Below, one piece after another: positions 247-30,560 of a stretch of DNA of 32,000 bases (positions within the stretch are counted from its first letter, which is position 1; each line of letters begins with the position of its first letter). This DNA comes from Candidatus Kuenenia stuttgartensis (GTDB taxonomy: Bacteria > Planctomycetota > Brocadiia > Brocadiales > Brocadiaceae). The position numbers and the translations under genes were made by a program. Where the stretch lies: NCBI RefSeq assembly GCF_900232105.1, contig NZ_LT934425.1:4080001-4112000 (forward strand). Direction: 5' to 3'. The notes under the pieces are model-generated. The model saw only the letters and a program-made list of their open reading frames with translations. It did not search any database and was not told the DNA's origin.

Positions 247-1146
247 TCAAAATTGTTTCCCTTCTGATTGCAACGCCTCAAAGCCCGCTACTATATCAAG
301 AAGTTCTTCAGTGATAGAGGTCTGATACTGATGACGATAGGACATATTCAACCCTTCAACCGTTTCTTTTATATTTTTTTCTGCAGTTTGCATGGAAGAA
401 AGCCGGCTTGCGTTTTCACTTGCCATAGACTCTGCAAGTGCCCGATAGAGTAAAACAAAAATATACTGGCGAACAAGCGTTGAAAAAAGTTTCCTCCTCT
501 CCATTGTAAATGTTGGAATTATATGAGATGGCCATTTTTTCCCCGCTAACGCATCCAACCATTCCTGATCCAGCGGCAAGAGATGCGCTGTTTGAGGTTT
601 GCAGGAAGTGCTGGATAACAATTTATGGTGAAACAAAATAACCTTTGTAATTTTCCCCTTCTCTTCCAAACTGTTAAGCGCCGTTACAATTTTGTATCCG
701 GTTTCTACAAGCTCTGAGTGGGACGCCGGTACAGGGAATATTTCTTCAACAGGATGCCCTCGTTCTTCGATAAGATCTGCTGCCCGCACTCCGACGCAGA
801 GCAAAACATATCGTTCATGGGCAATGCTTTTGCTGTACATGCTTTCCAGCGCATATGATGTTATTTGACTATTGAATCCGCCACAAAGGCCATGGTCGGA
901 ACCGAATACCACGGCGCATCCTGCAGTTTTTTCCTTTCCTGATATTTTTGAAACAACTTCTCCCTCTCCTTTTTGGAGAACCACCTGAAGGCCCATTTCA
1001 ATGGTTCGGTAGTAACCGGAAACCGCTTCAACAGCTTCCTCATAATGGCGAACATTTATCGCTGCAAGCGTTTTCATAGTTTTTACTATGGCATGCAAAT
1101 CTTCAGCGCTCTGAATTTTCCTCCTCAACCGTTCAAGTGTTAGCAT
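247..1146 (-). CDS. atpG: F-type ATPase gamma subunit (N-ATPase operon)
   Basis: 299 aa. The N-terminal helix (...IQSAEDLHAIVKTMKTLAAINVRHYEEA) and C-terminal helix (...ITEELLDIVAGFEAL) are typical of gamma. The ATG directly abuts the TAG stop of atpA (1146/1147). Last gene of the operon. Confidence 0.9.
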   Translation of the reverse strand: MLTLERLRRKIQSAEDLHAIVKTMKTLAAINVRHYEEAVEAVSGYYRTIEMGLQVVLQKGEGEVVSKISGKEKTAGCAVVFGSDHGLCGGFNSQITSYALESMYSKSIAHERYVLLCVGVRAADLIEERGHPVEEIFPVPASHSELVETGYKIVTALNSLEEKGKITKVILFHHKLLSSTSCKPQTAHLLPLDQEWLDALAGKKWPSHIIPTFTMERRKLFSTLVRQYIFVLLYRALAESMASENASRLSSMQTAEKNIKETVEGLNMSYRHQYQTSITEELLDIVAGFEALQSEGKQF

Positions 1147-2688
1147 CTAAATGCCCTCTTCTTTTTCAGCAATAACATTTCTTGCCAGAGAGACAATTTT
1201 ATACCGGTCTTCGTCAATGAGTTGTTCTCCTTTTTCAATCTTCTGGCATACGTCAGGCAATTTTTCAGTCACTTCTTTACTGATGGCGGATTCCGCTGCA
1301 GAAATAAGCTCTATGGGCGATTTATCCAATAAGCCTTCCACTACTGCCATTAAAACAACAATTTGCACAGAAACCGGCACAGGTTGAAACTGTGGCTGTT
1401 TGAGAATCTCACGGACACGTTTCCCACGCTCAATAATTTTTCGGGTTGATTCATCTAACCGCGTGCTGAAACGCGCAAACCTCTCCAACTCCTCAAATTG
1501 AGCGTAAGAAAGCCGTAAATCACTTGCCACCATCCTGTAAGACGGAAATTGTGCCTTGCCCCCGACTCTGGATACCGACCTCCCTACATTTACAGCCGGC
1601 ATAATCCCTTTCTGCGCAAGTTCCGGAGATAGATAAATCTGTCCGTCAGTGATAGAAATCAAATTTGTAGGAATATACGCCGAAATATTCTGCGCTTCCG
1701 TCTCAATAATAGGCAAAGAGGTCAAAGACCCTCCTCCAAGCTCTTTTTTCAGGTGTGTGGATCTTTCCAGCAGGCGGGAATGAATATAAAAAATATCGCC
1801 GGGAAAAGCTTCCCTGCCAGGCGGCCTTCTCAGCAGGAGGGATAGTTCCCGGTATGCCCGTGCATGATTCGTTAAATCATCGTACACGATGAGCACATCC
1901 TCTCCCTTATACATGAAATATTCCGCCATGGCAGTGGCGGCATAAGGAGCGATATATTTCATTCCGGGAGTCGATTCACCAGCGGCAACCACGATAATTG
2001 TATTATCCAATACATCATTTTTCCGAAGATCCGCTATCAATTTTGCCACGGAAGAACTTCTTTGCCCTATTGCGCAGTAAACGCAAATAACCCCCTTATC
2101 TTTTTGATTAATAATCGTGTCCAGGGCAATCGTTGTCTTTCCTGTCTGGCGGTCGCCAAGAATGAGTTCTCTTTGCCCCCTTCCTATGGGGATTAAGGCG
2201 TCTATCACCTTTATTCCTGTTTGCAGCGGTATATTTACCGGAGAACGGTCAATAATAGCCGGCGCTTCTCTCTCTATAATTTGACGGTGAGTTGTTCGTA
2301 CCGGGCCATAATTATCCAAAGGCCTTCCCACAGCATCTATCACGCGCCCAAGCAGCATTTTACCGACAGGCACATCTATGACCTTGCCTGTCCGCTGCAC
2401 TTCGCCTCCCGCTTTTATATCATCATCTTCGTCGAGCAAAATGATCCCAGCTTCCCCATGATCCAGGTTGAATACCAGGCCGGGAAGACTGCCGGAAAAA
2501 AGCACCATTTCTTCAGATTTCACATTCCATAAGCCATTTACCCGCGCAATTCCTTTTCCCACGTAAGTAACCGTGCCTGTTTCCCGTATTTCCAGTGGAT
2601 ATTCTTTTTTCTCCAATATCTGTCCGAAGGCATCAAATGCCTTGTTAATTTGTGTTTCCATGAGATTTCCAGTAGTCGCCATAATCAT
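1147..2688 (-). CDS. atpA: F-type ATPase alpha subunit
   Basis: 513 aa. Walker A GDRQTGKT, conserved [10 protein letters not shown]-like block ([12 protein letters not shown]), [20 protein letters not shown] and ITDGQIYL motifs. Confidence 0.97.
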
Positions 2689-2690
2689 GA

Positions 2691-3461
2691 TTACCTCGCT
2701 AATTCTTCATCCAATGTTTTATCCACTTCTTTCTCAAGGAATTTAATGTAATCATCGAGGTTCCATCCGATCCTGTAGTTTTTTACCCTGAAGTCTATTC
2801 CACAAATATGGTCATGGGGAGATATATATTGAATTTCCAGTTTTTCACCCATGACATTGCTGATTTCAGTGGTAATGATTTGCTGCTGTTCTGCAGGAAT
2901 CTCAAACATACTGGTTATCACTGCCTGATAGTGTGATTGTTCTAAAATGTCTTTAATCTTGTTTTTCTCTGTGTTGCCAAGATTTCTGATTTTTTTAAGA
3001 AAGGTATCTGTCATATTTTTTTCAAGATCAGCACTTGAAAGATCCGACAATATTTTTCTCAGAATAGCATATATCTGCGTAGTCGTTTTTTTCCGGAGAT
3101 TTGCAAGAAACGTTTCTCTCTCTTCCTTCAATGATTCATGCCATCGTTCTTTCAATTCTTCAACTTCCCTGCGTGCATTTTCAATAAGTTCCTTTTTCTG
3201 TGCTTCTGCTTCCAAACTTGCGCTGGTAAAGAGACTTTCGCATCTTGCATCATTTTCCTTATTTTTTTGAAGATAAAGTTCTCTTTCGTTGTCTGCGTCA
3301 ATCATCTTCTGTTCCGCCGACTGCAATTTGGAAGCGATCATTTCTTCTCTTGCATTCATAACCGAAATAATCCTTCCATAAAGAAAATGCTTCAGGAGAA
3401 AAACAAGAAGCAGGAAGTTAAATATTTGGGCAAATACGGTGAACCAATTAATAAGCATCAC
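2691..3461 (-). CDS. atpF: F-type ATPase b subunit with delta(OSCP)-like C-terminal extension
   Basis: 256 aa. One N-terminal TM helix ([20 protein letters not shown]), a long charged coiled-coil, then about 100 aa resembling the delta C-terminal domain. GTG at 3461 or ATG at 3458 overlaps the atpE TGA (TGATG). Confidence 0.85.
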
Positions 3462-3739
3462 TGTCCCCCGGCTTTAGTTATCACATAATTCCAAAAAGGA
3501 TTTGCAAAAATAACAATCATAGCTACAACAAAACAATAGATCGCAGTGGATTCTATCATAGCCATGCTGACAAACAACGTCCTCGTAATTGTATTTGCCT
3601 CGTCAGGCTGCTGTGCAATTGAACTGAGAGCCTGAGCCGCCGCACGAGCCTCTCCCAGCGCGGGGCCAATCGAACCAACCGCTATTGTAAAACCGGCGAC
3701 AATAATAGATACCATTCCAATCAGGCCAACATTATCCAT
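3458..3739 (-). CDS. atpE: F-type ATPase c subunit (rotor ring)
   Basis: 93 aa two-helix hairpin with loop QQPD and the helix-2 carboxylate motif MIESTAIY. By eye it is collinear with the Ilyobacter tartaricus c subunit. Confidence 0.93.
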   Translation of the reverse strand: MDNVGLIGMVSIIVAGFTIAVGSIGPALGEARAAAQALSSIAQQPDEANTITRTLFVSMAMIESTAIYCFVVAMIVIFANPFWNYVITKAGGQ

Positions 3740-3745
3740 GCTGTT

Positions 3746-4456
3746 TTACTCCTTTCCTTTTCCATATTTTTCTAATGTTTGTTCTTTTTCTTCATAAACC
3801 CGCGTTGCAGAAGCGATATACACGATAGAAAGAATAGCAAAAATGTACGCCTGTATTAACCCTGTCAGCAAGCCCAACGCCTGCATGAGAATGGGGAAAA
3901 AAATTGGCGCAATCGAAAGCAGGATTGCGATGATAACAGACCCGCTCATAACGTTTCCAAAAAGCCTGACTGCAAGCGCTATCGTACGGGAGGCTTCTCC
4001 CAAAATATTGAACGGCAACATGAATGGCGTGGGTTTCAAATAATGTTTCAAATAACCTATAAAACCGCGTTTTGATATTCCGTAAAACTGCACTGCCACA
4101 AATACACAAATGGCAAGCGCTGCAGTGGTTGATAAGGAACCGGTGGGCGATTGATACCCCGGAATAATACTCATAATGACAGACACTGAAATGAATAAAA
4201 ATAACGTTCCCACGATAGGCAAAAACCTGTCCGGTTCCTGGTTGCTGATTGCCCGAATCTGTTTATTCATGCCTAATACAAGCGTTTCAAGAAGATTTTG
4301 CCAGCGGGATATCTTGCATTCTGTCGTCAATTTCTTCGTGCCAAACCATGACAGCGCAACAATCACTGCCATGGTAATCCAGGTATAGACAATGGTCGCA
4401 TTTAATGCGATCGGCCCAATGTGAAGAACTATTGTATTGTCAGGACTTATATTCAC
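3746..4456 (-). CDS. atpB: F-type ATPase a subunit
   Basis: 236 aa polytopic membrane protein with the essential stator arginine motif (LAVRLFGNVMSG) and C-terminal helices typical of subunit a. Confidence 0.9.
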   Translation of the reverse strand: MNISPDNTIVLHIGPIALNATIVYTWITMAVIVALSWFGTKKLTTECKISRWQNLLETLVLGMNKQIRAISNQEPDRFLPIVGTLFLFISVSVIMSIIPGYQSPTGSLSTTAALAICVFVAVQFYGISKRGFIGYLKHYLKPTPFMLPFNILGEASRTIALAVRLFGNVMSGSVIIAILLSIAPIFFPILMQALGLLTGLIQAYIFAILSIVYIASATRVYEEKEQTLEKYGKGKE

Positions 4457-4469
4457 GCATTACCCCCCA

Positions 4470-4781
4470 CTATTTTGAATGGTATGTCATCTTCATCTTG
4501 GACCCTTCGGGAAGAAAACGTTTTACCAATACTCGTCGTACAATAAAGAACCCCACTAAACACACAAGTAATCGTTCCCAGCGGCCATCCATGATGAAAT
4601 AAAATGTAGCCAGAACAATCGCCATGCGTATAATATAACTTAGCATAATCAGTGCGGAGGGGTATTTTATTATTGGAAGATAATGTATGGTACTCCACAT
4701 GCCGGCAAAATTCAGCAAACCTACCGCCATTCCAACTGCAAGTGCAGTGGCAAGCGTAAATATATCATTTACCATAATCAT
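4470..4781 (-). CDS. atpR: N-ATPase accessory membrane protein AtpR
   Basis: 103 aa, about 3 hydrophobic helices, with an arginine inside a helix (YIIRMAIVLATF). It sits between atpQ and atpB, as in N-ATPase operons. Assignment is by position and topology, not by alignment. Confidence 0.7.
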   Translation of the reverse strand: MIMVNDIFTLATALAVGMAVGLLNFAGMWSTIHYLPIIKYPSALIMLSYIIRMAIVLATFYFIMDGRWERLLVCLVGFFIVRRVLVKRFLPEGSKMKMTYHSK

Positions 4782-4828
4782 TATTCCCCTTTGTTCCAGA
4801 TATATTTAACAGTAAAGCAAGATTCACA

Positions 4829-5135
4829 TTAATCATTTTTATCGGACATTTTTATCCAGCGCCACGCATTCAGGCAACCAATTGCTATGCCAACACTAAG
4901 AAGCGTAAGCGTCCATGACACAGGCGACGGCCATTTTTTATCAATCCAGATACCAAGTGCTATGCCAAGTAATGTGGGAATAGTTATCGACCAGCCTATG
5001 ATCCCCGACATGCCCATGCCAAACCAAAACGATTTGGACTTCGATTCTTTCCTGCCTTTTATTTTACGCGATTCTTTTTTCCCTACTTCCACAACGAATT
5101 TTTTTAATACATCATCCTCTTTCTTTTGTGCAGGG

Positions 5136-5143
<8 letters not shown>
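4829..5143 (-). CDS. atpQ: N-ATPase accessory membrane protein AtpQ (ATPase_gene1/AtpZ-like)
   Basis: Basic N-terminus followed by two TM helices (FGMGMSGIIGWSITIPTLLGIALGIWID..., WTLTLLSVGIAIGCLNAWRWI). I prefer the ATG at 5143 (ATGGTTGA overlapping the atpC stop) over the ORF-track start at 5191. Confidence 0.65.
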
Positions 5144-6928
<1,785 letters not shown>

Positions 6929-7132
6929 TTATTATCGTATTACTTGTTGAAATACTGGTAATACTTTATGTAGCAGCAATTCATCCGTCGCCGCTACACC
7001 GCTGATAATGGCGTTATTGTAGTATTTTAAAAAAACGGACCTGTTGCGAAAAATCAGTATAGGTCAAAAGAAAATTCAATGCAAGCACAATACGCTTGCA
7101 CATTACTTACAAAACGAATGGTTAAAATATTT

Positions 7133-7153
7133 TGTAACACTTTGGTTTTTTGA
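7133..7153 (+). repeat. 21-nt dispersed motif TGTAACAC-TTYRK-TTTTTT-GA, copy a
   Basis: TGTAACACTTTGGTTTTTTGA. It recurs at 25632-25652 (+, TGTAACACTTTATTTTTTTGA) and 25765-25785 (-, TGTAACACTTCAGTTTTTTGA). Confidence 0.7.
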
Positions 7154-7165
7154 AAAACGTAAGAG

Positions 7166-7217
7166 CGAGAGACGAGAAACGAAGGATATCCGTCGTCTCT
7201 CGTCCGTCATCCTTCGT
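7166..7217. repeat. Interleaved inverted repeats (A-B-A'-B' topology) in the atpD / M50-protease divergent intergenic region
   Basis: A is CGAGAGACGA at 7166-7175, pairing with A' TCGTCTCTCG at 7193-7202. B is ACGAAGGAT at 7179-7187, pairing with B' ATCCTTCGT at 7209-7217. Both pairs are perfect complements. Confidence 0.6.
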
Positions 7218-7353
7218 CCTCGGTAGTTTATATTACGCTATAATAGTAGCCAGGAGGTTAAAATTATTATTGCATTTAACATTGAAAAAGATTAGAGATG
7301 CGGTAAGCGTATTTTGGGTTGAATAATTTAAAAACAGATGAAAGGAGAAAAAC

Positions 7354-8463
7354 ATGAACGGATCATTACAGGGGGCATGGAAGATAGGTACGGTAATGGG
7401 TATTCCAATAAGAGTGCATTTTACGTGGTTTATCGTCTTCGGTTTGATTACATGGTCTCTGTCAACTTTATACTTTCCAAAGGCAGCTCCTGACCTACCT
7501 GTGACATCTTACTGGCTAAAAGGCGCCCTTGCAGCCCTTCTACTTTTCGCCTCCGTAGCCTTTCACGAACTGGCCCATTGCATTGTGGCAAAGAGGTACA
7601 AAATTTCCATAGAGAGCATAACACTCTTTATCTTTGGTGGAGTTTCCAGGATGAAAAGTGAACCACCCCACCCAAGGGCTGAATTTAATATTGCTATTGC
7701 AGGGCCTCTTTCCAGTTTTTTTTTGTACGCTTTGTTTTACTTTATTTCTATGGGTGTATCAGGAAGCATGAAGACGCTTTTTATATACCTGGCACAAATC
7801 AATCTGATTATTGGGATATTTAATCTCATTCCGGGTTTCCCTTTGGATGGGGGGAGGGTTTTGAGAGCTATTTTGTGGAGTAAGAATAAGAACTTTTTTT
7901 CTGCGACGCAAAAGGCAGCTGGCGTCGGGAGGAAGATTGCCCTGTTTTTTGTCTTTTTCGGGTTGTTTTCTCTTTTTACAGGAGTGCCGGGAGGTCTGTG
8001 GCTGATGCTTATTGGTTGGTTTCTCTTTACGGCAGCCCAGGCAAGTTATCAGCAGTCAGCGCTTCAGGAATATCTTTTTGGCGTTAAAGTCAAAGACTTA
8101 ATGGTGAGGGACCTGATTAACGTAAGTCCTTCCCTTAGCCTTGAGGAGGTTGTGAATAATTACTTTCTGAAATATGGCTACGGCGGTTTCCCTGTAGTAG
8201 AGGATGGAAAGTATCTTGGTATAATAACCCTGAAAGAAATAAAAGGCATACCTAAAAACGCTTTTGAAGATACAAGAGTCAGGGAAGTTTATCTGAAACA
8301 TAAAAAGCAATGGGAAATATCCGCCGAAGCGGAGGCAATAAAAGCCCTTGAATCGATGCTGAGGGAAGATACAGGGAGGTTGGTTGTTAAGAAAGGGGCA
8401 TCTATACAGGGACTCATAACCAGAAACGGCATTGCCCGTTATGTCCAAATCATCGGGAAATGA
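7354..8463 (+). CDS. Site-2 protease family (peptidase M50) membrane metalloprotease with tandem CBS domains
   Basis: 369 aa. HExxH (FHELAHC) in a TM helix, second zinc-ligand motif NLIPGFPLDGGR, and a C-terminal CBS pair (...GGFPVVEDGKYLGIITLKEI... / ...GRLVVKKGASIQGLITRNGI). SD AGGAG lies 6-7 nt upstream of the ATG. Confidence 0.9.
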   Translation: MNGSLQGAWKIGTVMGIPIRVHFTWFIVFGLITWSLSTLYFPKAAPDLPVTSYWLKGALAALLLFASVAFHELAHCIVAKRYKISIESITLFIFGGVSRMKSEPPHPRAEFNIAIAGPLSSFFLYALFYFISMGVSGSMKTLFIYLAQINLIIGIFNLIPGFPLDGGRVLRAILWSKNKNFFSATQKAAGVGRKIALFFVFFGLFSLFTGVPGGLWLMLIGWFLFTAAQASYQQSALQEYLFGVKVKDLMVRDLINVSPSLSLEEVVNNYFLKYGYGGFPVVEDGKYLGIITLKEIKGIPKNAFEDTRVREVYLKHKKQWEISAEAEAIKALESMLREDTGRLVVKKGASIQGLITRNGIARYVQIIGK

Positions 8464-8588
8464 CACGGTCAATTGATATTCTGCCTTACGAACCTGCAAT
8501 CATACCGGCAGCAAAATATAACCGGAACATCTGCATCAGAAGGAAAGTAATAAGTCCCGGAAACTTAAAGCAAACCGGAGGTGCTTCG

Positions 8589-10160
8589 ATGGTTCACAAA
8601 AAATCGGCATACACAATATCAAGGGAAGACTTTGATGCGGTAATCTTTGATCTTGACGGAGTGGTCACCGATACGGCAAGCGTGCATGCAGATGCATGGA
8701 AAAAGATGTTTGATGAATTTCTCTCCCAATATGCTGCCTGTAATAATAAGCCATTTCAACCTTTTGATATTGACGCAGATTACCGCCTTTATGTTGATGG
8801 CAAACCACGTTTTGATGGCGTGAGGAGTTTCCTCCGTTCAAGGGGTGTTAATCTGCCCGAAGGACAACCAGATGATTTGCCCGGCACAGAATCTATCCAC
8901 GGCCTGGGCAAATTAAAGAATGAATATTTCCTGAAACACATCGGAGACCATGGCGCTGAAGTATATGATTCGACAATAGATTTTATACATAGTTTGAAAA
9001 AACAAGGCTGCAAAACAGCCATAATATCCTCGAGTAGAAACTGCGCCATGATCCTTGATTCAACAAATCTTTCATCCCTGTTTGACGTCAGGGTGGATGG
9101 ACTGGATTCTGAAGTTCTTGGCATTAAAGGTAAGCCTGCTCCGGACATTTTCCTTGAGGCAGCAAGACAGTTAAAGGCGAAACCTGAACGTGCGGTTGTG
9201 ATTGAAGATGCTATTTCAGGTGTTCAAGCAGGAAAAGCCGGCAAATTCAGGCTTGTGGTTGGTGTGGCACGGACAGGCGATAAAGAATCGCTGCTTGAAA
9301 ACGGAGCTGATGTAGTAGTTGAAGACCTCTCTGAAATCGGCGTCAGGAACGATATTGAAGTAATTCATGGCCTGCCTTCCGCACTGGACAGCATTGATGA
9401 TATTGCCAATCAGGCAAGGGGCAAACGCATTGCCGTTTTTCTTGACTACGACGGAACTCTAACCCCTATAGTTGAAACACCCGACAAAGCTATTATGGCA
9501 GAAGACATGCGGGAGGCTGTGATAAAACTTTCCAATAATTGTACGGTAGGAATAATAAGCGGTCGCGATCTAAAAGATGTGCAGGAGAAGGTGGAAATAG
9601 ACTCATTTGTCTATGCCGGAAGCCATGGCTTTGATATTGCGGGGCCAGAGGGATTAAACATAAAGAGTCAGGCAGGGGCAGAATTTCTGCCTGTTCTCGA
9701 TAAAGCAGAGAAGGAACTTTCCGAAAAGCTCCGCTCAATAGAAGGTGTGTTTGTGGAACGGAAAAAATTCGCTATTGCCATTCATTATCGCCTTGTAACT
9801 CCGGAGAAAGCCGAACTTGTAGATGAGATTGTGGATAAAGTGGCTTCCGTCTATCCTGAACTTAGAAAGGCATACGGAAAAAAGATATTCGAACTACAGC
9901 CGGATATTGACTGGCACAAGGGAAAGGCCCTGCTTACCTTATTAAAAGCATTGAAGCTTGACGGAGACGACGTACTGCCTTTTTATATAGGAGATGATGT
10001 GACCGATGAAGACGCATTCTGGACACTCAAAGGCAGTGGTATCGGAATTGTTGTCTGGGACGAACCCTATGAGACGGCGGCTTCTTATAGTCTTAAGAAT
10101 CCGGAAGAGGTACGCAAATTCCTTTTGAAACTTATTCCATTAGGAGGTGGCCATGAATAA
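8589..10160 (+). CDS. Bifunctional HAD fusion: beta-phosphoglucomutase-like domain + trehalose-6-phosphate phosphatase (OtsB-like) domain
   Basis: N-terminal half: HAD motifs FDLDGVVTD, IISSS, KGKPAPDIF, IEDAISGVQAG (beta-PGM type with a large cap). C-terminal half, from about nt 9350: FLDYDGTLTP, GIISGRD, HKGKAL, YIGDDVTDEDAF (T6PP type). I prefer the ATG at 8589, preceded by GGAGGTG, over the ORF-track start at 8460. Confidence 0.85.
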   Translation: MVHKKSAYTISREDFDAVIFDLDGVVTDTASVHADAWKKMFDEFLSQYAACNNKPFQPFDIDADYRLYVDGKPRFDGVRSFLRSRGVNLPEGQPDDLPGTESIHGLGKLKNEYFLKHIGDHGAEVYDSTIDFIHSLKKQGCKTAIISSSRNCAMILDSTNLSSLFDVRVDGLDSEVLGIKGKPAPDIFLEAARQLKAKPERAVVIEDAISGVQAGKAGKFRLVVGVARTGDKESLLENGADVVVEDLSEIGVRNDIEVIHGLPSALDSIDDIANQARGKRIAVFLDYDGTLTPIVETPDKAIMAEDMREAVIKLSNNCTVGIISGRDLKDVQEKVEIDSFVYAGSHGFDIAGPEGLNIKSQAGAEFLPVLDKAEKELSEKLRSIEGVFVERKKFAIAIHYRLVTPEKAELVDEIVDKVASVYPELRKAYGKKIFELQPDIDWHKGKALLTLLKALKLDGDDVLPFYIGDDVTDEDAFWTLKGSGIGIVVWDEPYETAASYSLKNPEEVRKFLLKLIPLGGGHE

Positions 10161-12549
10161 CTGGACACTTTTATATGAAGACTTTAAACCTTCCATGGAA
10201 AGCCTCAGAGAAGCCCTTTGTACACTGGGAAACGGATATTTCGCAACACGTGGTACCTCGCCGGAATCTGAGGCTGACGAGATTCATTATCCCGGTACTT
10301 ATCTCGCTGGAGGCTATAACCGGTTGAAAACTGATATTGCAGGCCGTGTAGTAGAAAATGAAGACTTGGTGAATATGCCAAACTGGTTACTCACGAAATT
10401 CCGGCCTGAAGGCGGCGACTGGTTTAATCTGATGACCGTCGACATTCTTTCCTATCGGCAGGAACTCAACATGAAAGAGGGCATTCTCTCAAGAACAGTG
10501 AGATTCAGAGATAGACAAAATCGCGAAACAACATTGATTCAACGGCGTTTTGTACATATGGCAAATATGCATCTTGCAGCGCTTGAAATTACAATCATAC
10601 CTGAGAATTGGTCAGGGCGTATTCAAATACTCTCCGCCATGGACGGAACTATTATCAATGCAGGAGTTGAACGTTATAAGCAGTTAAACAGCAAACATCT
10701 TGCGCCTGTAAAAAGCGGAAAAGCCGATAATGACATAATTTATCTGCTTGTAGAGACCAATCAATCTCATATCCGTGTGGCAGAGGCTGCAAGAACCCGT
10801 GTTTATATTGAGGGTGAACAGATAGAAGTTGAAAGAAAGCCTGTTGAAGAGCCCGGCTATATTGCTCAGGAATTTTTTATTGAGGCAGTAAATAATACGC
10901 CTGTGACAATTGAAAAGATTGTTTCTTTTTATGCATCTAAAGACTTTGCCATTTCCGAACCTGCTCAGGATGCTGTTGAAGCTCTCAGGCATACCGGCAA
11001 TTTCAAAGAATTATTCGAGCGCCATGCTATGGAATGGAACCATCTCTGGTACAAATGCGACATTCAGATAGCGGACAATGACCGTACACAGATGATTCTC
11101 CGCCTGCACATATTTCATATGCTACAGACGGTTTCCAGAAACTCGATTGATCTGGATATAGGTGTACCTGCAAGGGGTTGGCACGGAGAGGCATACAGGG
11201 GGCATATTTTCTGGGATGAGTTGTTTATCTTTCCATATCTCAATTTGAGAATTCCAGTGCTTACCAGAGCTCTGCTGCTTTACAGATACAGGCGGTTAAA
11301 CAGATCTCGCATTGCCGCTCAAGAGGCGGGATTTAGAGGCGCACTCTATCCATGGCAAAGCGGAAGCGACGGAAGGGAGGAAACACAACAGCTTCATCTT
11401 AATCCCAAATCAGGCCGCTGGCTTCCGGACAACACACACCTCCAGCGCCATGTAAATGCAGCTATAGCGTATAACGTCTGGCAGTACTTCGAAACAACAG
11501 AAGATCTGGAATTTATGGCTACATATGGCACGGAAATGATTCTTGAAATCGCCAGATTTCTGTCAAGCCTCACCTCTTATAACAGAGAAATAGACCGCTA
11601 TGAAATACTCGGTGTCATGGGGCCTGACGAATATCATGATAAATATCCTGACGCTGAAAAACCTGGGCTGAATAACAATGCCTATACAAATGTGATGACC
11701 GTCTGGGTATTGCGTACTGCTATTAAAGCCCTCAACAAGCTGAACCCTAAAAGGAGGTATGACCTTCTGGAAATAATTGGCTTGGAGAAAACCGAGATCG
11801 GACAGTGGCAGGACATTATCCATAAAATGAAGGTTGTCTTTCATGATGATGGCATAATCAGCCAGTTCGAGGGATACAATGAGTTAGCTGAATTCGACTG
11901 GGATGGTTATATCAAAAAATATGGAGATATACAGCGTCTTGACCGTATTCTGGAGGCGGAAGGAGATACAACCAACCGCTATAAGGCTTCAAAGCAAGCG
12001 GACGTACTCATGCTTTTTTATCTCTTTTCTGCAGAGGAACTGCACGAACTTTTTAAAGAAATGGGATACGATTTTGATCCACAAATTATTCCAAAGAACA
12101 TAGAATACTATCTTAAGCGATGCTCTAACGGTTCTACCCTCAGCAATATTGTCCTATCGTGGGTTCTTGCCAGGTCAGATCGTACGGGATCATGGAATAT
12201 TTTTAATAAGGCACTGGAAAGCGATATCTCGGATATACAGGGAGGCACTACACACGAAGGCATACATCTGGGCGCAATGGCTGGGACTGTTGATATTCTC
12301 CAGCAGTGCTATACAGGTATAGCATTCTGTGATGAGATGCTCCATCTGAATCCGAAAATTCCTGAAGGTTTGCAAAGACTCATGTTAAAGATAAAGTATA
12401 GGGGGAACTGGTTTGATATCAACATAACACCGGATGCATTGGCCATTACCTCAAGCAAAGAAAGAGACATAATAACGAAAATTTGTTTCCGCGAAAAGAT
12501 ATATGAAATTAAACCTGGCGACACTTTAAATTTTGATATAAAGGTATAA
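10153..12549 (+). CDS. Glycoside hydrolase family 65 disaccharide phosphorylase (trehalose / trehalose-6-P / kojibiose phosphorylase family; acceptor unknown)
   Basis: About 798 aa. GH65 N-terminal block (LREALCTLGNGYFATRG...HYPGTYLAGGYNRL), central catalytic (alpha/alpha)6 region with HGEAYRGHIFWD, and the putative catalytic-acid motif VMGPDEYH. AGGAGG lies 5 nt before the ATG at 10153. There is an 8-nt overlap (ATGAATAA) with the upstream fusion gene. Confidence 0.9.
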   Translation: MNNWTLLYEDFKPSMESLREALCTLGNGYFATRGTSPESEADEIHYPGTYLAGGYNRLKTDIAGRVVENEDLVNMPNWLLTKFRPEGGDWFNLMTVDILSYRQELNMKEGILSRTVRFRDRQNRETTLIQRRFVHMANMHLAALEITIIPENWSGRIQILSAMDGTIINAGVERYKQLNSKHLAPVKSGKADNDIIYLLVETNQSHIRVAEAARTRVYIEGEQIEVERKPVEEPGYIAQEFFIEAVNNTPVTIEKIVSFYASKDFAISEPAQDAVEALRHTGNFKELFERHAMEWNHLWYKCDIQIADNDRTQMILRLHIFHMLQTVSRNSIDLDIGVPARGWHGEAYRGHIFWDELFIFPYLNLRIPVLTRALLLYRYRRLNRSRIAAQEAGFRGALYPWQSGSDGREETQQLHLNPKSGRWLPDNTHLQRHVNAAIAYNVWQYFETTEDLEFMATYGTEMILEIARFLSSLTSYNREIDRYEILGVMGPDEYHDKYPDAEKPGLNNNAYTNVMTVWVLRTAIKALNKLNPKRRYDLLEIIGLEKTEIGQWQDIIHKMKVVFHDDGIISQFEGYNELAEFDWDGYIKKYGDIQRLDRILEAEGDTTNRYKASKQADVLMLFYLFSAEELHELFKEMGYDFDPQIIPKNIEYYLKRCSNGSTLSNIVLSWVLARSDRTGSWNIFNKALESDISDIQGGTTHEGIHLGAMAGTVDILQQCYTGIAFCDEMLHLNPKIPEGLQRLMLKIKYRGNWFDINITPDALAITSSKERDIITKICFREKIYEIKPGDTLNFDIKV

Positions 12550-12736
12550 ATGCCAATGGGCGTATTCCCGATTTTTTGTAAATCTTCACACCCGAGGTTT
12601 GCCTTTGTCGCGATGCTTTTCCTGTTGTTTGGCAAGAATCAGGCTTATAATAGCTGTTTAATAACTTTTATATTCATAATATATATAAAATCAAGATAAT
12701 TTGGTTCTGGCTTACCACAGGTTAAAGTTGTTGGTA

Positions 12737-14422
12737 TTATGCCCGTGTTAAGTGTCTGTATTTGATGCGATGAGGCTGGTCGGAGGCGGAGCCAATGCGT
12801 CTTTTTCTCTCTTCCTCGTATTCAGTATAGTTTCCCTCAAACCAGATAACCTTGCTATCCCCCTCAAAAGCAAGAATGTGGGTGGCAATCCTGTCAAGGA
12901 ACCAGCGGTCATGGCTTATCACCACAGCGCAGCCGGAAAAGTTTTCCAACGCATCCTCGAGGGCACGCATGGTATTTACATCAAGATCATTTGTTGGTTC
13001 ATCGAGCAGGAGGACGTTTGCGCCTTCTTTTAACATACAGGCAAGATGCACCCTGTTTCTTTCCCCTCCGGAAATAGCGTTCACCGGTTTTTGCTGATCC
13101 GCACCTGAAAAGTTAAATCGCGCCACATATGCGCGTGAGTTGACCTCTCTGCTGCCGATTTGAATTATGTCGTTACCGCCGGATATTGTCTCCCATATCG
13201 TTTTATTCGGATCGAGGGTTTCACGGCTCTGGTCTGCATATGCTAGTTTTACCGACTCCCCTATCCTGATTGTTCCGTTATCCGGCTTCTCTTGTCCGGT
13301 AATCATCCGGAACAATGTAGTTTTCCCGGCACCGTTAGGGCCAATGATGCCTACAATTCCACCACGCGGCAGTGAAAACGTCATATTCTCTATCAAAATA
13401 CGGTCTCCGTATGATTTGAAAACCTTATCCGCCTCAATAACTAAATTCCCCAATCTCGGTCCTGGCGGGATGTAAATCTCCAGTTCTTTTATTTGTTTCT
13501 CGGTTTGTTGCGCAAGCAATGATTCATAAGAATTGATTCGCGCCTTTGATTTTGCGTGCCGTCCCTTCGGACTCATCCGGATCCATTCCAGCTCGCGTTG
13601 CAATGTCTTTTGCCGTTCAGTCTCTTGTTTTTCTTCCTGTTGCAATCTTTTCTGTTTTTGATCAAGCCATGAAGAATAGTTACCCTTCCATGGTATACCA
13701 TATCCGCGGTCAAGTTCTAATATCCAGCCGGCGACATTATCAAGAAAATACCGGTCGTGCGTCACAGCAATCACTGTTCCTTCATATTTCAGCAAGTGTT
13801 GCTCCAGCCAGGCAACCGTTTCAGCATCGAGGTGGTTCGTCGGTTCATCCAAAAGCAGGATGTCCGGTTTTTTTAAGAGCAATCTGCAAAGCGCCACACG
13901 CCGTTTTTCTCCACCTGATAATATCTTTACCGGTGTATTTCCCTCAGGGCAACGTAGCGCATCCATTGCCATTTCAAGCCGGGAATCAAGGTCCCAGGCA
14001 TTAAGCGCGTCAATCTTTTCCTGAACCGCCCCCTGCCTTTCTATCAAAGCATTCATTTCATCGCCTGACATTGGTTCTGCAAATTGTTCGTTTATACGGT
14101 TATATTCATTGTGGAGATCTACCAATTCCTGGACGCCTTCTTCCACAATCTGACGCGCCGTTTTTGTTTCGTCAAGCAAGGGTTCCTGTTCAAGAAATCC
14201 TACCGTATATCCCTGTGAAAGCGTTACCTGTCCGTTATAATTCTCGTCTACTCCTGCCATTATGCGTAAAAGAGAACTCTTTCCCGAACCATTTAAACCA
14301 AGCACGCCAATCTTAGCGCCGTAAAAATAGGAAAGCGAGATGTCTTTTAATACGGGTTTTTTTTCATAAAACTTGCTCACACTGTTCATGGAATAAATAA
14401 CTTTGTTCGGTTGATTGCTCAT
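12737..14422 (-). CDS. ettA: ABC-F ATPase, energy-dependent translational throttle protein EttA
   Basis: 561 aa with no TM domain and two ABC cassettes: Walker A GLNGSGKS and GPNGAGKT; signatures LSGGEKRR and ISGGERNR. N-terminus (...GAKIGVLGLNGSGKSSLLRIMAGVD) and length match EttA/YjjK. Confidence 0.9.
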   Translation of the reverse strand: MSNQPNKVIYSMNSVSKFYEKKPVLKDISLSYFYGAKIGVLGLNGSGKSSLLRIMAGVDENYNGQVTLSQGYTVGFLEQEPLLDETKTARQIVEEGVQELVDLHNEYNRINEQFAEPMSGDEMNALIERQGAVQEKIDALNAWDLDSRLEMAMDALRCPEGNTPVKILSGGEKRRVALCRLLLKKPDILLLDEPTNHLDAETVAWLEQHLLKYEGTVIAVTHDRYFLDNVAGWILELDRGYGIPWKGNYSSWLDQKQKRLQQEEKQETERQKTLQRELEWIRMSPKGRHAKSKARINSYESLLAQQTEKQIKELEIYIPPGPRLGNLVIEADKVFKSYGDRILIENMTFSLPRGGIVGIIGPNGAGKTTLFRMITGQEKPDNGTIRIGESVKLAYADQSRETLDPNKTIWETISGGNDIIQIGSREVNSRAYVARFNFSGADQQKPVNAISGGERNRVHLACMLKEGANVLLLDEPTNDLDVNTMRALEDALENFSGCAVVISHDRWFLDRIATHILAFEGDSKVIWFEGNYTEYEEERKRRIGSASDQPHRIKYRHLTRA

Positions 14423-14700
14423 TTTGGCATGCCTCCGGGAAAAATTGTTACATGGTTTTTTCTGCTTGTATTCTTAATATGAATCAGCATGTGCATAACT
14501 ATAAAAGAATTTTGCCTGCTTAGCAAGCCTGCGGTAGAACTCTTCCATAAACTGTACCGTCGGCAATCGACAATCTACAGTCGGCAAATTGAGATTGAAA
14601 TTATTATTAAAACCTCAACTTATTGAAAAGTTACCATAAAGCACACTTTTTCCGTCAATTTTTTCGCTCCATGCAGAGACGCACAACAACGCTTCCCAAC

Positions 14701-14728
14701 ATTAGTCATTAGTCATTAGTCATTGGTC
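14701..14728. repeat. Tandem heptamer (ATTAGTC)x3 + ATTGGTC
   Basis: ATTAGTCATTAGTCATTAGTCATTGGTC, read directly. It lies in the ettA/lysC divergent intergenic region. Confidence 0.9.
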
Positions 14729-14752
14729 AACTGCCGACTGAAGAAAGGATCA

Positions 14753-14798
14753 TTAAATATTTTGCCGGAAAATGTAAAGAAATTACTGATAAGGTACT
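14753..14798 (+). repeat. Two-box intergenic element (14-nt box TTAAATATTTTGCC + 19-nt box AAATTACTGATAAGGTACT), copy 1
   Basis: Both boxes recur perfectly at 25812-25825 and 25861-25879. The spacer is 13 nt here and 35 nt there. Confidence 0.8.
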
Positions 14799-15036
14799 AT
14801 GTTCTCTACAGTTAAAATATTGGCTATTATTATCGTTAAAAATGATTTGACTTTGTTTAACTCTTTTTATAATCTTGATAAAAATTTTCTTTTAGCTATT
14901 CATAGCACACAAAGCCGCAATCAAAAAGAGTTTAACCACGAAACACTATGGGCACAAAGAAAAACTTACAAAAGAAAGATGTTTTTACAGGGTAATACTA
15001 TATTCACCATTACATTTTTTATCATAAGAGCGACTC

Positions 15037-16278
15037 ATGGGACTAATTGTTCAAAAATTTGGCGGTACTTCTGTTGCTGATGCTGAACGCATAAAGGCTG
15101 CTGCCAGGCGAGTTACAGAAACATATGATGCCGGGAATAAAGTGATTGTTGTTGTTTCTGCGAGGGGACAAACAACTGATGAACTTATTGAACTTGCAAA
15201 TGAAATTATTGATAAACCTTCTACACGCGAAATGGATATGTTATTATCAACGGGCGAACAGGTTTCTATTGCCCTCATGGCAATGGCGATTCATGCGCTT
15301 GGGTATCCTGCAATATCATTTACCGGTGGTCAGGTGGGTATCGTTACGGATAGTTTTCACACGAAGGCGCGCATCCGCAACATCAATGCAGACCGAATCC
15401 GCAAGGAATTAGATAATGGCTCCATTGTTATTGTAGCGGGTTTTCAGGGCATTGACGTAAATGAAAACATAACCACCCTGGGAAGAGGCGGTTCTGATAC
15501 TACGGCAGTCGCCCTCGCATCTATTCTGCATGCGGACAGATGTGATATTTTTACGGACGTGGATGGAATTTATACCGCCGACCCAAGAAAGGTGCCAAAT
15601 GCCAGAAAACTCAATAAAATCTCGTATGATGAGATTTTAGAGCTTGCGAGCCTGGGCGCCCAGGTAATGCACTCGCGCTCGATAGAATTTGCAAAAAAAT
15701 ACAATGTGCCTTTATACGTTCGCTCAAGTTTCAACAACTCTGAAGGAACATTGATATGTAAGGAGATTGATGATATGGAAAACATTGTTGTAAGCGGTGC
15801 AACCGTCAGCAAAAACGATGCAAAAATTACTATCAGGTCTATTCCTGATGTTCCCGGCCAGGCGGCAAAAATATTTCACGAGATCGCGAAAAAAAATATT
15901 AATGTGGACATGATCATTCAAAACGCAAGTGTCGAAGGACGCGCTGACGTAACGTTTACTGTACCGCGAAGTGATTTGAAAAACGCGCTGGAAACTGCAG
16001 AAAAGATAAAAAAGGACCTCTGGGCAATGGAGGTTTTATACGATGACAAAATCGCTAAACTATCCGTAGTAGGGATAGGCATGCGGAGCCATTGTGGTGT
16101 AGCGGAAAAGATGTTCAGTATCCTTGCTGAAGAAAAAATTAACATACAGATGATTAGTACCTCTGAAATAAAAATATCCTGCATAATCGATGAAGCTCAC
16201 GCCGAACGGGCATTAAATGCAGTGCATAAAATATTTGGATTAAACCTCGTCAAAAACGAAGTGGCCGCTAAGGTCTAA
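15037..16278 (+). CDS. lysC: Aspartate kinase (monofunctional, with two C-terminal ACT domains)
   Basis: 413 aa. MGLIVQKFGGTSVAD start, the GFQG...TTLGRGGSDTTAVALA block, and a C-terminal ACT pair (...AKLSVVGIGMRSHCGVAEKMFSILAEEKINIQMISTSEIKIS). Confidence 0.95.
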   Translation: MGLIVQKFGGTSVADAERIKAAARRVTETYDAGNKVIVVVSARGQTTDELIELANEIIDKPSTREMDMLLSTGEQVSIALMAMAIHALGYPAISFTGGQVGIVTDSFHTKARIRNINADRIRKELDNGSIVIVAGFQGIDVNENITTLGRGGSDTTAVALASILHADRCDIFTDVDGIYTADPRKVPNARKLNKISYDEILELASLGAQVMHSRSIEFAKKYNVPLYVRSSFNNSEGTLICKEIDDMENIVVSGATVSKNDAKITIRSIPDVPGQAAKIFHEIAKKNINVDMIIQNASVEGRADVTFTVPRSDLKNALETAEKIKKDLWAMEVLYDDKIAKLSVVGIGMRSHCGVAEKMFSILAEEKINIQMISTSEIKISCIIDEAHAERALNAVHKIFGLNLVKNEVAAKV

Positions 16279-23686: not shown

Positions 23687-23694
23687 AAATAATA

Positions 23695-25421
23695 TGTTAC
23701 CTAAATCCTGCAAACAAGGCAAAGCCTTGTTGCAGGAATAGGATTGAAATGGTAGGATTTCCAAGGTATTCGGCGGTATATTGATAACAAAAAACACCTG
23801 AAAGGAGATTCACCATTTCGATGAAGAATATAGCAAAAAAATACAGCAAAAGACAACCGAAAATCAAGGCAGAGATGAGCGGGAAAGGCTTAACGGTACA
23901 TGCAGGGCTTTTACCGGTATTGAATTTTATGGGTAAGCTGATGTTCCGGGAGAGAGTCCATGAAGCGGTCCATAAGGATCGTGGAGCAAATGCCCGGTAT
24001 CAGTTTGTCGATGCGGTACAAATGGTAGTGATAGGGTTGATAGCAGGGGCGACATCGATGGTAGAGGTGATGAAGGTGTGTACAGATGAGGTATTGAAGA
24101 AGATGTCCGGGTGGAAAGAGGTACCTGTAGATACTACGATAGGACGTATTATGAAGCTGGCGAGTCAGGGAGATATAGTGGAACTGACGGGGGTGATCCA
24201 CCGGTTTAGGGGAAAGATATGGAAGCGTGCGGTGAGATCAGGCCATAAACTCAGGAGTGCTCTTTGCGAAGTATGGATAGATGTTGATTCTACCGTAGAT
24301 GGTGTATATGGGAAACAGGAGGGTGCAGAGGTAGGATATAATCCGCACAAGAAGGGGCAGAAGGCGTATCATCCCTTAATGGCATTTATTGCAGAAACAA
24401 AGGAGGTATTACATAGTTGGTTCCGCTGTGGAAGCGCCTACACGAGTAACGGAGTAGTAGAGTTCATGAAGGAATGTATGGCGTACATGAATAAGGGGGT
24501 AAGGGTGGTATTTCGGGGAGACAGCGGTTTTTTTACCGGAGAATTACTTGAATACCTTGAGTCAATATTGGCGGGATATCTGATTAAGGTAAAGCTGAAG
24601 AATCTGGAAGGATTGCTTGAAGGGCAGAAATGGAATGAGGTGAAAGGGGAGCCAGGATGGGAACAGGCTGAATTTTGGTATCGATGTGCAGGGTGGGATC
24701 GTGCGAGACGTTTTGTGGCAGTGCGGCAATTGGTCAAAAGAGAAAAGAAATTAGTAGAAGTGTCCGTGTATGAGTATTTTTGTTACGTTACAACGGAGCG
24801 GTTAAGTCCGATGGAAGCGCATCGTTGTTATGGAAAGAGGGCTACCTGCGAGACTTTGATAGAAGAGAGTAAAGGACAGATGAATGCGGGGCACATACGT
24901 ACGGGTGAATTTTTGGCCAATGCTGCGCTATTTCAGTGTGCGGTGTTAGCGTATAATCTTTTGAAGTGGATGGGATTGCTCAGTGGTGGAGTGATACAAC
25001 AGTGGGAAGTAAAGACGATGAGACTGTGGTTAATCCGTGTGGCAGGGAAACTGGTGGAGAGAAGCCGGCAGATGACATTAAAATTGCCGGAGAAATTTCT
25101 CCATCAGGAGGAATGGGAAAAGTGGGAACGCATGTCACTGGATGTAGTTTTTCAGTAGAAAACCGACGTTGTATTTCGTTTTTTTAGTCTTTTGAGAGTG
25201 GTAAGTATACCGCAGATGGAGACAGTACATCCCTATCTTGATTTTCATTGCATCAGAGAGCACGTTTCCGACAATTTCCCATGTCTTTTTGTTTAAAGTA
25301 GTACAATAGCGCTACCACAATTGCTAAAAAACGGATATCTGTTATCGCTTTTTGCCAATCTTGGTAGTGGAAAATACTGATTTTCGCATTGCGAAAATCG
25401 TTTGCAGGATTTAGGTGTAAT
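23695..25421 (+). mobile_element. IS1380-family insertion sequence, copy 1 (intact)
   Basis: A 1727-bp block, identical apart from 1 SNP and 1 indel to 26929-28654 in inverted orientation. The inverted-repeat core CCTAAATCCTGCAAAC sits at 23700-23715 and, reverse-complemented, at 25400-25415. The CC-initiated IR resembles the ISEcp1-type IR (CCTAGATTCTAC...). Subterminal hairpins occur at both ends. Confidence 0.85.
23821..25158 (+). CDS. IS1380-family DDE transposase
   Basis: 445 aa. Candidate DDE triad in WIDVDST, FRGDSGFF and TLIEESKGQ. The N-terminus (...GLTVHAGLLPVLNFM) is typical of IS1380/ISEcp1-like transposases. Confidence 0.85.
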   Translation: MKNIAKKYSKRQPKIKAEMSGKGLTVHAGLLPVLNFMGKLMFRERVHEAVHKDRGANARYQFVDAVQMVVIGLIAGATSMVEVMKVCTDEVLKKMSGWKEVPVDTTIGRIMKLASQGDIVELTGVIHRFRGKIWKRAVRSGHKLRSALCEVWIDVDSTVDGVYGKQEGAEVGYNPHKKGQKAYHPLMAFIAETKEVLHSWFRCGSAYTSNGVVEFMKECMAYMNKGVRVVFRGDSGFFTGELLEYLESILAGYLIKVKLKNLEGLLEGQKWNEVKGEPGWEQAEFWYRCAGWDRARRFVAVRQLVKREKKLVEVSVYEYFCYVTTERLSPMEAHRCYGKRATCETLIEESKGQMNAGHIRTGEFLANAALFQCAVLAYNLLKWMGLLSGGVIQQWEVKTMRLWLIRVAGKLVERSRQMTLKLPEKFLHQEEWEKWERMSLDVVFQ

Positions 25422-25631
25422 TATTAAACGCACATTCTCAAACGCCCAGACTTGGGTTAATGAGCCTTGTAGTAACAAAAATCACGATAAATCTTCGCAT
25501 ATAGCATGGGTTAAGACGAATAAATCGTTTCATTCTAAAATCTTGAAATACCTAAACTGGTTGGTTAATCAAAACCAAACAAGCAGAAAACATGAATGGG
25601 TGGAACAACAGACTTCACAAATTAAAAAAAA

Positions 25632-26852: not shown

Positions 26853-26928
26853 AATGACAAGACAGTGCCAATAAATAAAGGTATTACGATTTTACCCACT
26901 TGAAACTAGAAAGAGCCAAAAATATATT

Positions 26929-28654: not shown

Positions 28655-28663
28655 AAATAAAAT

Positions 28664-30477: not shown

Positions 30478-30560
30478 TATTTTGCCTCCTCTTCCACTAA
30501 ATCCAGCATTATAATATTTCGTTTAAAAGATCCGCTTTACTGTTTAACTCTTTGAAAATG

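Follow-up and report, generated by a model that had tools for sequence, protein, structure and literature searches.

A pair of overlapping genes in a 32-kb stretch of Candidatus Kuenenia stuttgartensis DNA (contig NZ_LT934425.1, positions 4,080,001 to 4,112,000; hereafter the window, whose numbering is used throughout unless another locus is named) probably directs the synthesis of trehalose from glucose-6-phosphate (G6P), independently of any nucleotide sugar. The first gene encodes a fusion of a beta-phosphoglucomutase (beta-PGM) with a trehalose-6-phosphate (T6P) phosphatase (T6PP), and the second encodes a phosphorylase of family GH65 that we predict to be a T6P phosphorylase (TrePP). The net reaction of this module would be 2 G6P + H2O -> trehalose + 2 Pi, where Pi is inorganic phosphate, by way of the beta anomer of glucose-1-phosphate (beta-G1P) and T6P. 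The linked set of three activities is real, very widespread and tightly held together, and it is a new arrangement of known enzyme families rather than a new kind of enzyme. We give slightly better than an even chance to the broader proposal that the module and its single-polypeptide form are a widespread, unrecognised trehalose pathway present in more than 15 phyla, which would also be the function of Mycobacterium tuberculosis OtsB1.

The two genes correspond to open reading frames (ORFs) on the plus strand, at 8460/8589-10160 and 10147/10153-12549, where the paired figures are alternative starts. We place the start of the fusion gene at 8589 because its homologues, which are 523-525 amino acids long and have an N-terminus of the form MV....A..IS..DFDAV, begin at an equivalent residue, and because a strong Shine-Dalgarno sequence, GGAGGTG (8577-8583, +), precedes the ATG by 5 nucleotides. 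A start at 8460 was rejected on the same grounds; it would overlap the stop codon of the upstream M50 peptidase gene. The resulting coding sequence (8589-10160, +) specifies a protein of 523 amino acids, the length at which several NCBI assemblies call the exact same protein, and its assignment as a beta-PGM::T6PP fusion draws on family models and homologues as well as on these calls. The Shine-Dalgarno sequence of the GH65 gene, AGGAGGTG (10142-10149, +), falls within the 3'-terminal part of the fusion gene. The GH65 start codon at 10153 and the TAA stop codon of the fusion gene at 10158-10160 both fall within an 8-nucleotide overlap, ATGAATAA (10153-10160, +), through which the two genes would be translationally coupled. 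The GH65 coding sequence then continues to 12549 (10153-12549, +) and encodes 798 amino acids.

Both halves of the fusion look functional, judging by the retention of all catalytic residues. The N-terminal half is a beta-PGM-type HAD-IA domain (residues 13-250; 8625-9338, +), of which residues 16-223 score 174.8 bits against the beta-PGM family model TIGR02009 (cut-off 153.35). It aligns end to end with the beta-PGM of Lactococcus lactis, and every catalytic and distal-phosphate residue can be mapped: the nucleophile D21 and acid/base D23, the hinge residues T29 and H33, the cap residues G71 and R74, the distal-phosphate site S147, S149, R150 and N151 (R150 is a Lys in most homologues), and K182, E206 and D207. 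Its best solved relative is a 260-amino-acid beta-PGM, 8h5s (227 bits), which we take to be M. tuberculosis Rv3400. Rv3400 has been validated as a beta-PGM both in vitro and in vivo.

The C-terminal half is a T6PP domain of the HAD-IIB type (residues 278-515; 9420-10133, +) that passes the T6PP equivalog model TIGR00685 by a wide margin (178.6 bits; cut-off 68.05) and matches PF02358 with an E-value of 3e-51. By far its closest solved relative is M. tuberculosis OtsB2 (5gvx, 239 bits), an essential and biochemically validated T6P phosphatase. HAD motifs I-IV are intact (D286, D288, S324, G325, R326, K444, D469, D470 and D473), and these residues are invariant in 81 fusion sequences. Over the whole fusion, the catalytic residues are either invariant or conservatively substituted in the same set, which is drawn from many phyla. 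The match to OtsB2 extends beyond the phosphatase domain, in that 5gvx aligns with window positions 9117-10130 (fusion residues 177-514), so that about 70 residues at the C-terminal end of the beta-PGM domain are covered too. The catalytic residues of this beta-PGM-aligned part are gone from OtsB2 (GKPAPD is replaced by GS-GLD, and EDA by SAH). Because the beta-PGM part still aligns while its catalytic residues have been lost, the N-terminal domain of OtsB2 looks like a degenerate remnant of just such a beta-PGM::T6PP fusion.

The product of the second gene has the full domain complement of a GH65 enzyme, with N-terminal, central and C-terminal domains detected at E-values of 7e-70, 2e-124 and 4e-10 (PF03636, PF03632 and PF03633, each above its cut-off), the catalytic (alpha/alpha)6 domain occupying residues 317-713 (11101-12291, +). 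We mapped its functional residues by the CsKP numbering of a GH65 review, in which E483 is the catalytic acid, F342, W343, D344, K596 and Q597 form the -1 subsite, and K/R330, Y337, S631, S632 and H675 form the phosphate site, Y337 being replaced by His in the nucleoside diphosphate (NDP)-sugar transferase. The GH65 alignment comprises 66 sequences which, like the 81 fusion sequences, span more than 15 phyla. In it, the acid E493 and the subsite residues W354, D355, K614 and Q615 are invariant and F353 is kept in 60. The phosphate-site residues R341, Y348, S661 and H705 are likewise invariant, and position 662 is T (as in the window) or S. Since a phosphate site occupies the place of the catalytic base of hydrolases, the protein is a phosphorylase, and the retention of Y348 argues against the NDP-sugar transferase variant; a GH65 hydrolase and an NDP-glucose transferase are thus both ruled out by the phosphate-site residues.

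The specificity of this phosphorylase can be predicted from published work. De Beul et al. (2021) defined six specificity positions in GH65 enzymes (CsKP 64, 392, 394, 402, 416 and 585), at which the fingerprint DQGQDE marks the T6P phosphorylases of GH65 subgroup 22. They verified this assignment biochemically, showing that CaGP of Caldithrix abyssi makes T6P from beta-G1P and G6P and is inactive on glucose; the reversible reaction T6P + Pi <-> beta-G1P + G6P has been shown both for CaGP and for L. lactis TrePP. In the window enzyme, five of the six positions are unambiguous (D71, Q402, G404, Q412 and E603), and position 416 is the invariant D426 if the loop is aligned gap-free from a conserved His (CsKP H423), which completes DQGQDE. 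The fingerprints of trehalose phosphorylase (TRIGPP), kojibiose phosphorylase (EEAPxx) and maltose phosphorylase (KV[MF]NES) were tried and do not fit. Because DQGQDE fits and the other phosphorylase motifs do not, the GH65 protein is predicted to be TrePP-like, a reading that the domains and phosphate site also support. Among solved structures, its top match is 9lb6 (449.8 bits), clearly above kojibiose phosphorylase 3wiq at 347.8 bits and above the structures of glucosylglycerol phosphorylase and maltose phosphorylase. The GH65 protein matches 9lb6 over the full length, and the alignment shows WQSG and PDN motifs common to the two. The entries 9lb6 and 9lb7 bear the name 'Trehalose-6-phosphate hydrolase', but the residues of the structure that align with the phosphate site are those of a phosphorylase, and the name was probably inherited from an annotation; our literature search turned up no paper citing 9lb6 or 9lb7 as a structure.

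The gene pair is conserved far beyond this genome. In a scan of one genome per species, we found 568 relatives of the fusion, and the counts that follow refer to the best 80 of these. The GH65 gene lies directly downstream of the fusion gene in 77 of the 80 loci and its product is 48-72% identical to that of the window; as the same order recurs in so many loci of other genomes, the pair is not a chance arrangement. The loci span more than 15 bacterial and archaeal phyla, with carriers among the Thermodesulfobacteriota, Planctomycetota, Nitrospirota, Chloroflexota, Actinomycetota, Cyanobacteria, Bacteroidota, Gemmatimonadota, Acidobacteriota, Verrucomicrobiota, Alpha-, Beta- and Gammaproteobacteria, Synergistota, Thermotogota, Atribacteria and Binatia, and, in the archaea, Ca. 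Ethanoperedens and Ca. Argoarchaeum. The nearest named relatives of the window fusion come from a Nitrospirota metagenome-assembled genome (84% identity) and from the anammox bacterium Ca. Loosdrechtia (72%). Where the genes are separate, 37 junctions overlap, most commonly by 4 or 8 nucleotides, and most of the others are separated by fewer than 10. In 13 of the 77 loci, all three activities reside in a single ORF of approximately 1,150-1,400 amino acids. A protein search with one actinobacterial triple fusion listed at least 120 such proteins of about 1,300 amino acids, including, besides environmental sequences, those of Nitrosococcus halophilus, N. oceani, N. wardiae, Sulfurimonas, Desulfohalobiaceae, Elusimicrobiota and a methanogen-related archaeon. 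Pairwise identities of the fusion and of the GH65 enzyme correlate (r = 0.83), and therefore the two have been inherited or transferred as a unit. The three loci in which no GH65 gene adjoins the fusion gene downstream include one with no room for it; in L015 the fusion gene (5986-7554) is followed by 2-oxoacid dehydrogenase genes, and in L028 (4389-6020) by a gene for a molybdopterin enzyme.

An initial annotation, made from the letters of the window, had anticipated much of this. It described the two ORFs with their 8-nucleotide overlap, both of which can be read directly from the sequence, and joined an intact beta-PGM to an intact OtsB-type domain by the motifs DLDGVVTD, SSS, KGKPAPD and EDAISGV, and DYDGTL, SGR, KGKAL and GDDVTDE, all of which we found in the translation; TIGR02009, TIGR00685 and the catalytic residues agree with it. 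Its assignment of the second protein to the inverting GH65 phosphorylases is borne out by the three domains, the acid and the phosphate site, and its guess that the enzyme is TrePP-like accords with the fingerprint, which is not that of a trehalose, kojibiose or maltose phosphorylase. It had also named conservation outside this genome as a point on which its proposal could fail, and the linkage was found to hold across phyla, archaea included.

The analysis shows all three catalysts to be present, intact and linked, and it gives each a predicted specificity; the direction of the first two steps of the pathway is inferred. In the first step, the beta-PGM domain would convert G6P to beta-G1P through beta-glucose-1,6-bisphosphate. 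In the second, the GH65 enzyme, running in reverse with the specificity predicted from its fingerprint, would condense beta-G1P with G6P to form alpha,alpha-trehalose-6-phosphate and Pi. In the third, the T6PP domain, whose activity is predicted from homology, would hydrolyze T6P to trehalose and Pi and so pull the two near-equilibrium steps before it. The beta-PGM reaction favors G6P by approximately 25-30 fold and L. lactis TrePP favors T6P synthesis by a similar factor; because these preferences offset one another, conversion of 2 G6P to T6P and Pi would lie near equilibrium. T6P hydrolysis, at about -13 kJ/mol, would drive the route and thereby make it exergonic as a whole. Because the phosphatase step is irreversible, the module could not consume free trehalose. 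Overlapping or fused genes would keep the three activities stoichiometric and close to one another, and closeness would matter because beta-G1P is a thermodynamically disfavored intermediate. If the G6P came from glycogen phosphorolysis, the route would cost no ATP or UTP, which would suit energy-limited anaerobes and dormant cells.

Several observations weigh against synthesis. The direction of flux is read only from gene architecture. The beta-PGM domain scores 114.9 bits against the strict beta-PGM equivalog TIGR01990, below the cut-off of 189.4, and the gap placement chosen by HMMER, in a loop that differs in length by three residues, puts W423 rather than D426 at specificity position 416. 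For the M. tuberculosis otsB1 mutant, one source notes no obvious phenotype and another none under the conditions it used. Those homologous systems that have been characterised, the TrePP/PgmB pair of L. lactis and Rv3400 of M. tuberculosis, serve catabolism. Finally, the T6PP domain could be no more than the OtsB that belongs to an OtsA pathway, and this leads to the likeliest of the alternatives, in which the module is a branch point or safety valve for T6P. OtsA would make T6P, the T6PP domain would act as an ordinary OtsB, and GH65 and beta-PGM would work phosphorolytically to return excess, toxic T6P to G6P at high Pi; the module would then set the levels of T6P and trehalose with no independent synthesis. 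The degradative nature of the characterised TrePP/beta-PGM pairs and the free reversibility of the GH65 reaction are in keeping with such a role, and a published survey reported OtsA homologues in most genomes of Ca. Ethanoperedens, a lineage that carries the module. Moreover, tblastn detected a GT20 otsA gene within 6 kb in 5 of the 80 loci (L071, L018, L066, L029 and, as a weaker match, L015). In L071, otsA (1974-3317) stands directly upstream of the fusion gene and on its strand, which suggests that otsA, the fusion gene and the GH65 gene form an operon. Because otsA is found near the module in these five loci, OtsA may feed the T6PP domain in some genomes. We nevertheless consider the safety valve unlikely. 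It would amount to a UTP-wasting futile cycle, and evolution would repeatedly have fused competitors for one substrate, in 13 of the 77 linked loci and in the triple fusions listed by the protein search. The substrate of the T6PP domain is the synthetic product of the GH65 enzyme, and repeated fusion is expected of consecutive steps rather than of competitors, which favors the synthetic direction. So does the gene context, since the usual source of T6P is near the module so rarely: no otsA lies within 6 kb in 75 of the 80 loci, as against a GH65 gene in 77, and tblastn with E. coli OtsA found no match in the 32 kb of the window. On these observations, otsA is not the usual partner of the module.

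The two remaining alternatives concern the product and the direction of the pathway. The GH65 enzyme might glucosylate another sugar phosphate or polyol phosphate, from which the 'T6PP' domain would release a different alpha-glucoside as a compatible solute. GH65 acceptors are diverse, several subgroups are uncharacterised, and for this exact clade the pairing of the GH65 enzyme with its own phosphatase is predicted from sequence. This alternative is nonetheless very improbable, given that the fingerprint is that of enzymes verified on G6P, that the T6PP equivalog model is passed so comfortably, and that the closest solved relative of the phosphatase domain is a validated T6PP. Alternatively, the module could be catabolic, with a kinase or the import of T6P providing the substrate and GH65 and beta-PGM converting it to 2 G6P, as in L. 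lactis. Consistent with this, the GH65 enzyme is, by the fingerprint of De Beul et al., of one specificity type with the catabolic enzyme of L. lactis, and a PfkB-family sugar kinase gene lies just 3' of the GH65 gene in five loci. We regard catabolism as very improbable, however, as the fused T6PP would reverse the kinase or phosphotransferase system (PTS) step, and no PTS gene was found in the window or among the gene families common to at least three of the 80 loci. We know of no bacterial trehalose 6-kinase. Furthermore, archaea and strict anaerobes are among the carriers, and such organisms generally have no sugar PTS from which T6P could come; this too favors the direction of synthesis. 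Synthesis of trehalose from G6P therefore stays our preferred function for the module.

As a stress protectant trehalose is of major importance, and the list of its biosynthetic routes (OtsAB, TreS, TreYZ, TreT and TreP) is regarded as closed. In recent reviews, GH65 enzymes are said to be typically degradative in vivo, and TrePP is given only as a route of T6P degradation. Full-text literature searches, whose reach did not extend to most subscription journals, turned up no account in which the module is a natural pathway. The contention of the initial annotation that the route is absent from those described thus agrees with the reviews and with the literature searched. Where its genes have been noticed, they go by other names: they are currently called 'trehalose-phosphatase', 'alpha,alpha-trehalase' or 'TreP/MalP', and in a 2026 survey of consortia that oxidise alkanes, this GH65 enzyme was tallied under 'TreP/MalP' and the fusion went unmentioned. 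Should the proposed pathway prove correct, the inference of trehalose capacity from genomes would change, and it would become clear how anaerobes that carry the module, such as sulfate reducers and alkane-oxidising archaea, can form an osmolyte from hexose phosphate or glycogen at no expense of UTP or ATP. The GH65 phosphorylase would also have a biosynthetic role in vivo, which is rare for the family, and M. tuberculosis OtsB1, a member of the DosR dormancy regulon, would gain a concrete, testable function. For biotechnology, the module would offer a natural three-enzyme, cofactor-free cassette for the production of trehalose or T6P.

Beyond the pair itself, the neighbourhood of the module varies. 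When all ORFs of the 80 loci were clustered, no third conserved gene emerged, and the only other widely recurrent families were antisense shadow ORFs. Sporadic neighbours include P-type ATPases (10 loci), GH13 enzymes (6), PfkB kinases (5), GT4 glycosyltransferases (4) and MscS channels (3). No treS, treYZ or treT gene occurs in the 32-kb window, and scans for promoters and terminators there were uninformative, the counts being at or under shuffled expectation. The five PfkB-family genes lie behind the GH65 gene in L065 (10067-11008), L007, L012, L072 and L074; such a sugar kinase could supply G6P, and the phosphorylation of trehalose is a less likely role for it. In L086 (Nitrosococcus halophilus, CP001798), the triple fusion gene (10001-15234) overlaps a downstream class I/II aminotransferase gene by 4 nucleotides and stands after the glutamate synthase genes gltBD and a truncated gene for a sodium:solute symporter.

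In the window, the module is flanked upstream by a gene for an M50/CBS peptidase and then by a divergent N-type ATPase operon, and downstream by a convergent gene for an ABC-F ATPase; the identical module arrangement is found in several NCBI assemblies. The N-type ATPase operon is complete (247-6928, -) and only one gene away from the module, its genes being ordered beta, epsilon, two small membrane proteins (4829-5191 and 4470-4781), a, c, b, alpha and gamma, and its synteny with the module is seen in four NCBI assemblies. Its c subunit carries the motif MIESTAIY, which we take to be a Na+-binding motif, and mechanosensitive channel genes lie near the module in three other loci; the region may be a salt-stress neighbourhood, a setting that speaks for the synthesis of trehalose. 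P-type ATPase genes, found within 6 kb in 10 of the 80 loci, encode P2-type cation ATPases (Cation_ATPase_N/C) upstream of the module and on the same strand in L047 (3077-5845), L065 (1829-4573), L012 (3393-5969) and L074 (1962-4685), which belong to unrelated phyla. According to a paper on DosR-related genes, M. tuberculosis has two of them with nearby locus numbers in otsB1 (Rv2006) and ctpF (Rv1997), the latter encoding a P-type ATPase.

Two copies of a 1.74-kb insertion sequence (DDE_Tnp_1_4; 23690-25424 and 26926-28659), inverted with respect to each other and 99-100% identical, bracket a 1.5-kb segment with an arginase-family gene (25929-26852), and the whole looks like a composite transposon or the substrate of a recent inversion. 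In L082, from a related assembly, the same kind of transposase gene lies directly 3' of the GH65 gene. Two adjacent genes for multihaem c-type cytochromes (28723-31652, -; Multi-haem_cyto, cytochrome c554/c7-like) are unrelated to the module and hint at the respiratory lifestyle of the organism.

The module combines elements of several known systems, each of which it also departs from. With OtsA/OtsB, it has the final step in common, a T6P phosphatase of the PF02358/TIGR00685 type for which OtsB2 is by far the closest solved relative. The difference lies in the origin of T6P, which OtsA, a GT20 enzyme, makes from UDP- or ADP-glucose, whereas the module is predicted to make it from beta-G1P and G6P with an inverting phosphorylase. 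The GH65 enzyme, in turn, is of the same three-domain type as L. lactis TrePP and Caldithrix abyssi CaGP (EC 2.4.1.216), with the same phosphate site and DQGQDE fingerprint. In Lactococcus, TrePP is teamed with a PTS and a separate beta-PGM for the degradation of trehalose, whereas in the window beta-PGM is fused to T6PP, no PTS is encoded, and synthesis is predicted. Similarly, the beta-PGM domain has its catalytic residues in common with L. lactis PgmB and Rv3400, yet those enzymes serve catabolism, while the window domain is fused to a second HAD enzyme and is predicted to convert G6P to beta-G1P. In vitro cascades of GH65 enzymes and beta-PGM employ the same chemistry as the module, as in a one-pot T6P synthesis described in a review, where beta-PGM supplies G6P from beta-G1P beside a T6P phosphorylase. 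Such cascades are engineered and maltose-fed; the module is natural and genetically linked, and it includes the phosphatase.

A further parallel is OtsB1 of M. tuberculosis, which would consist of HAD, T6PP-like and GH65 regions in the same order as the module. Its size and this putative architecture match the single-ORF versions of Actinomycetota, Desulfohalobiaceae, Nitrosococcus and archaea. OtsB1 (Rv2006) is a protein of 1327 amino acids in the DosR regulon that has T6PP homology, is labelled 'Glycosyl hydrolase, otsB1' and has been listed with no known function; according to reviews, T6PP activity in M. tuberculosis is shown by OtsB2 only. Where the OtsB1 type would hold the three activities in a single polypeptide of about 1,300 amino acids, the window divides them between two genes joined by an 8-nucleotide overlap.

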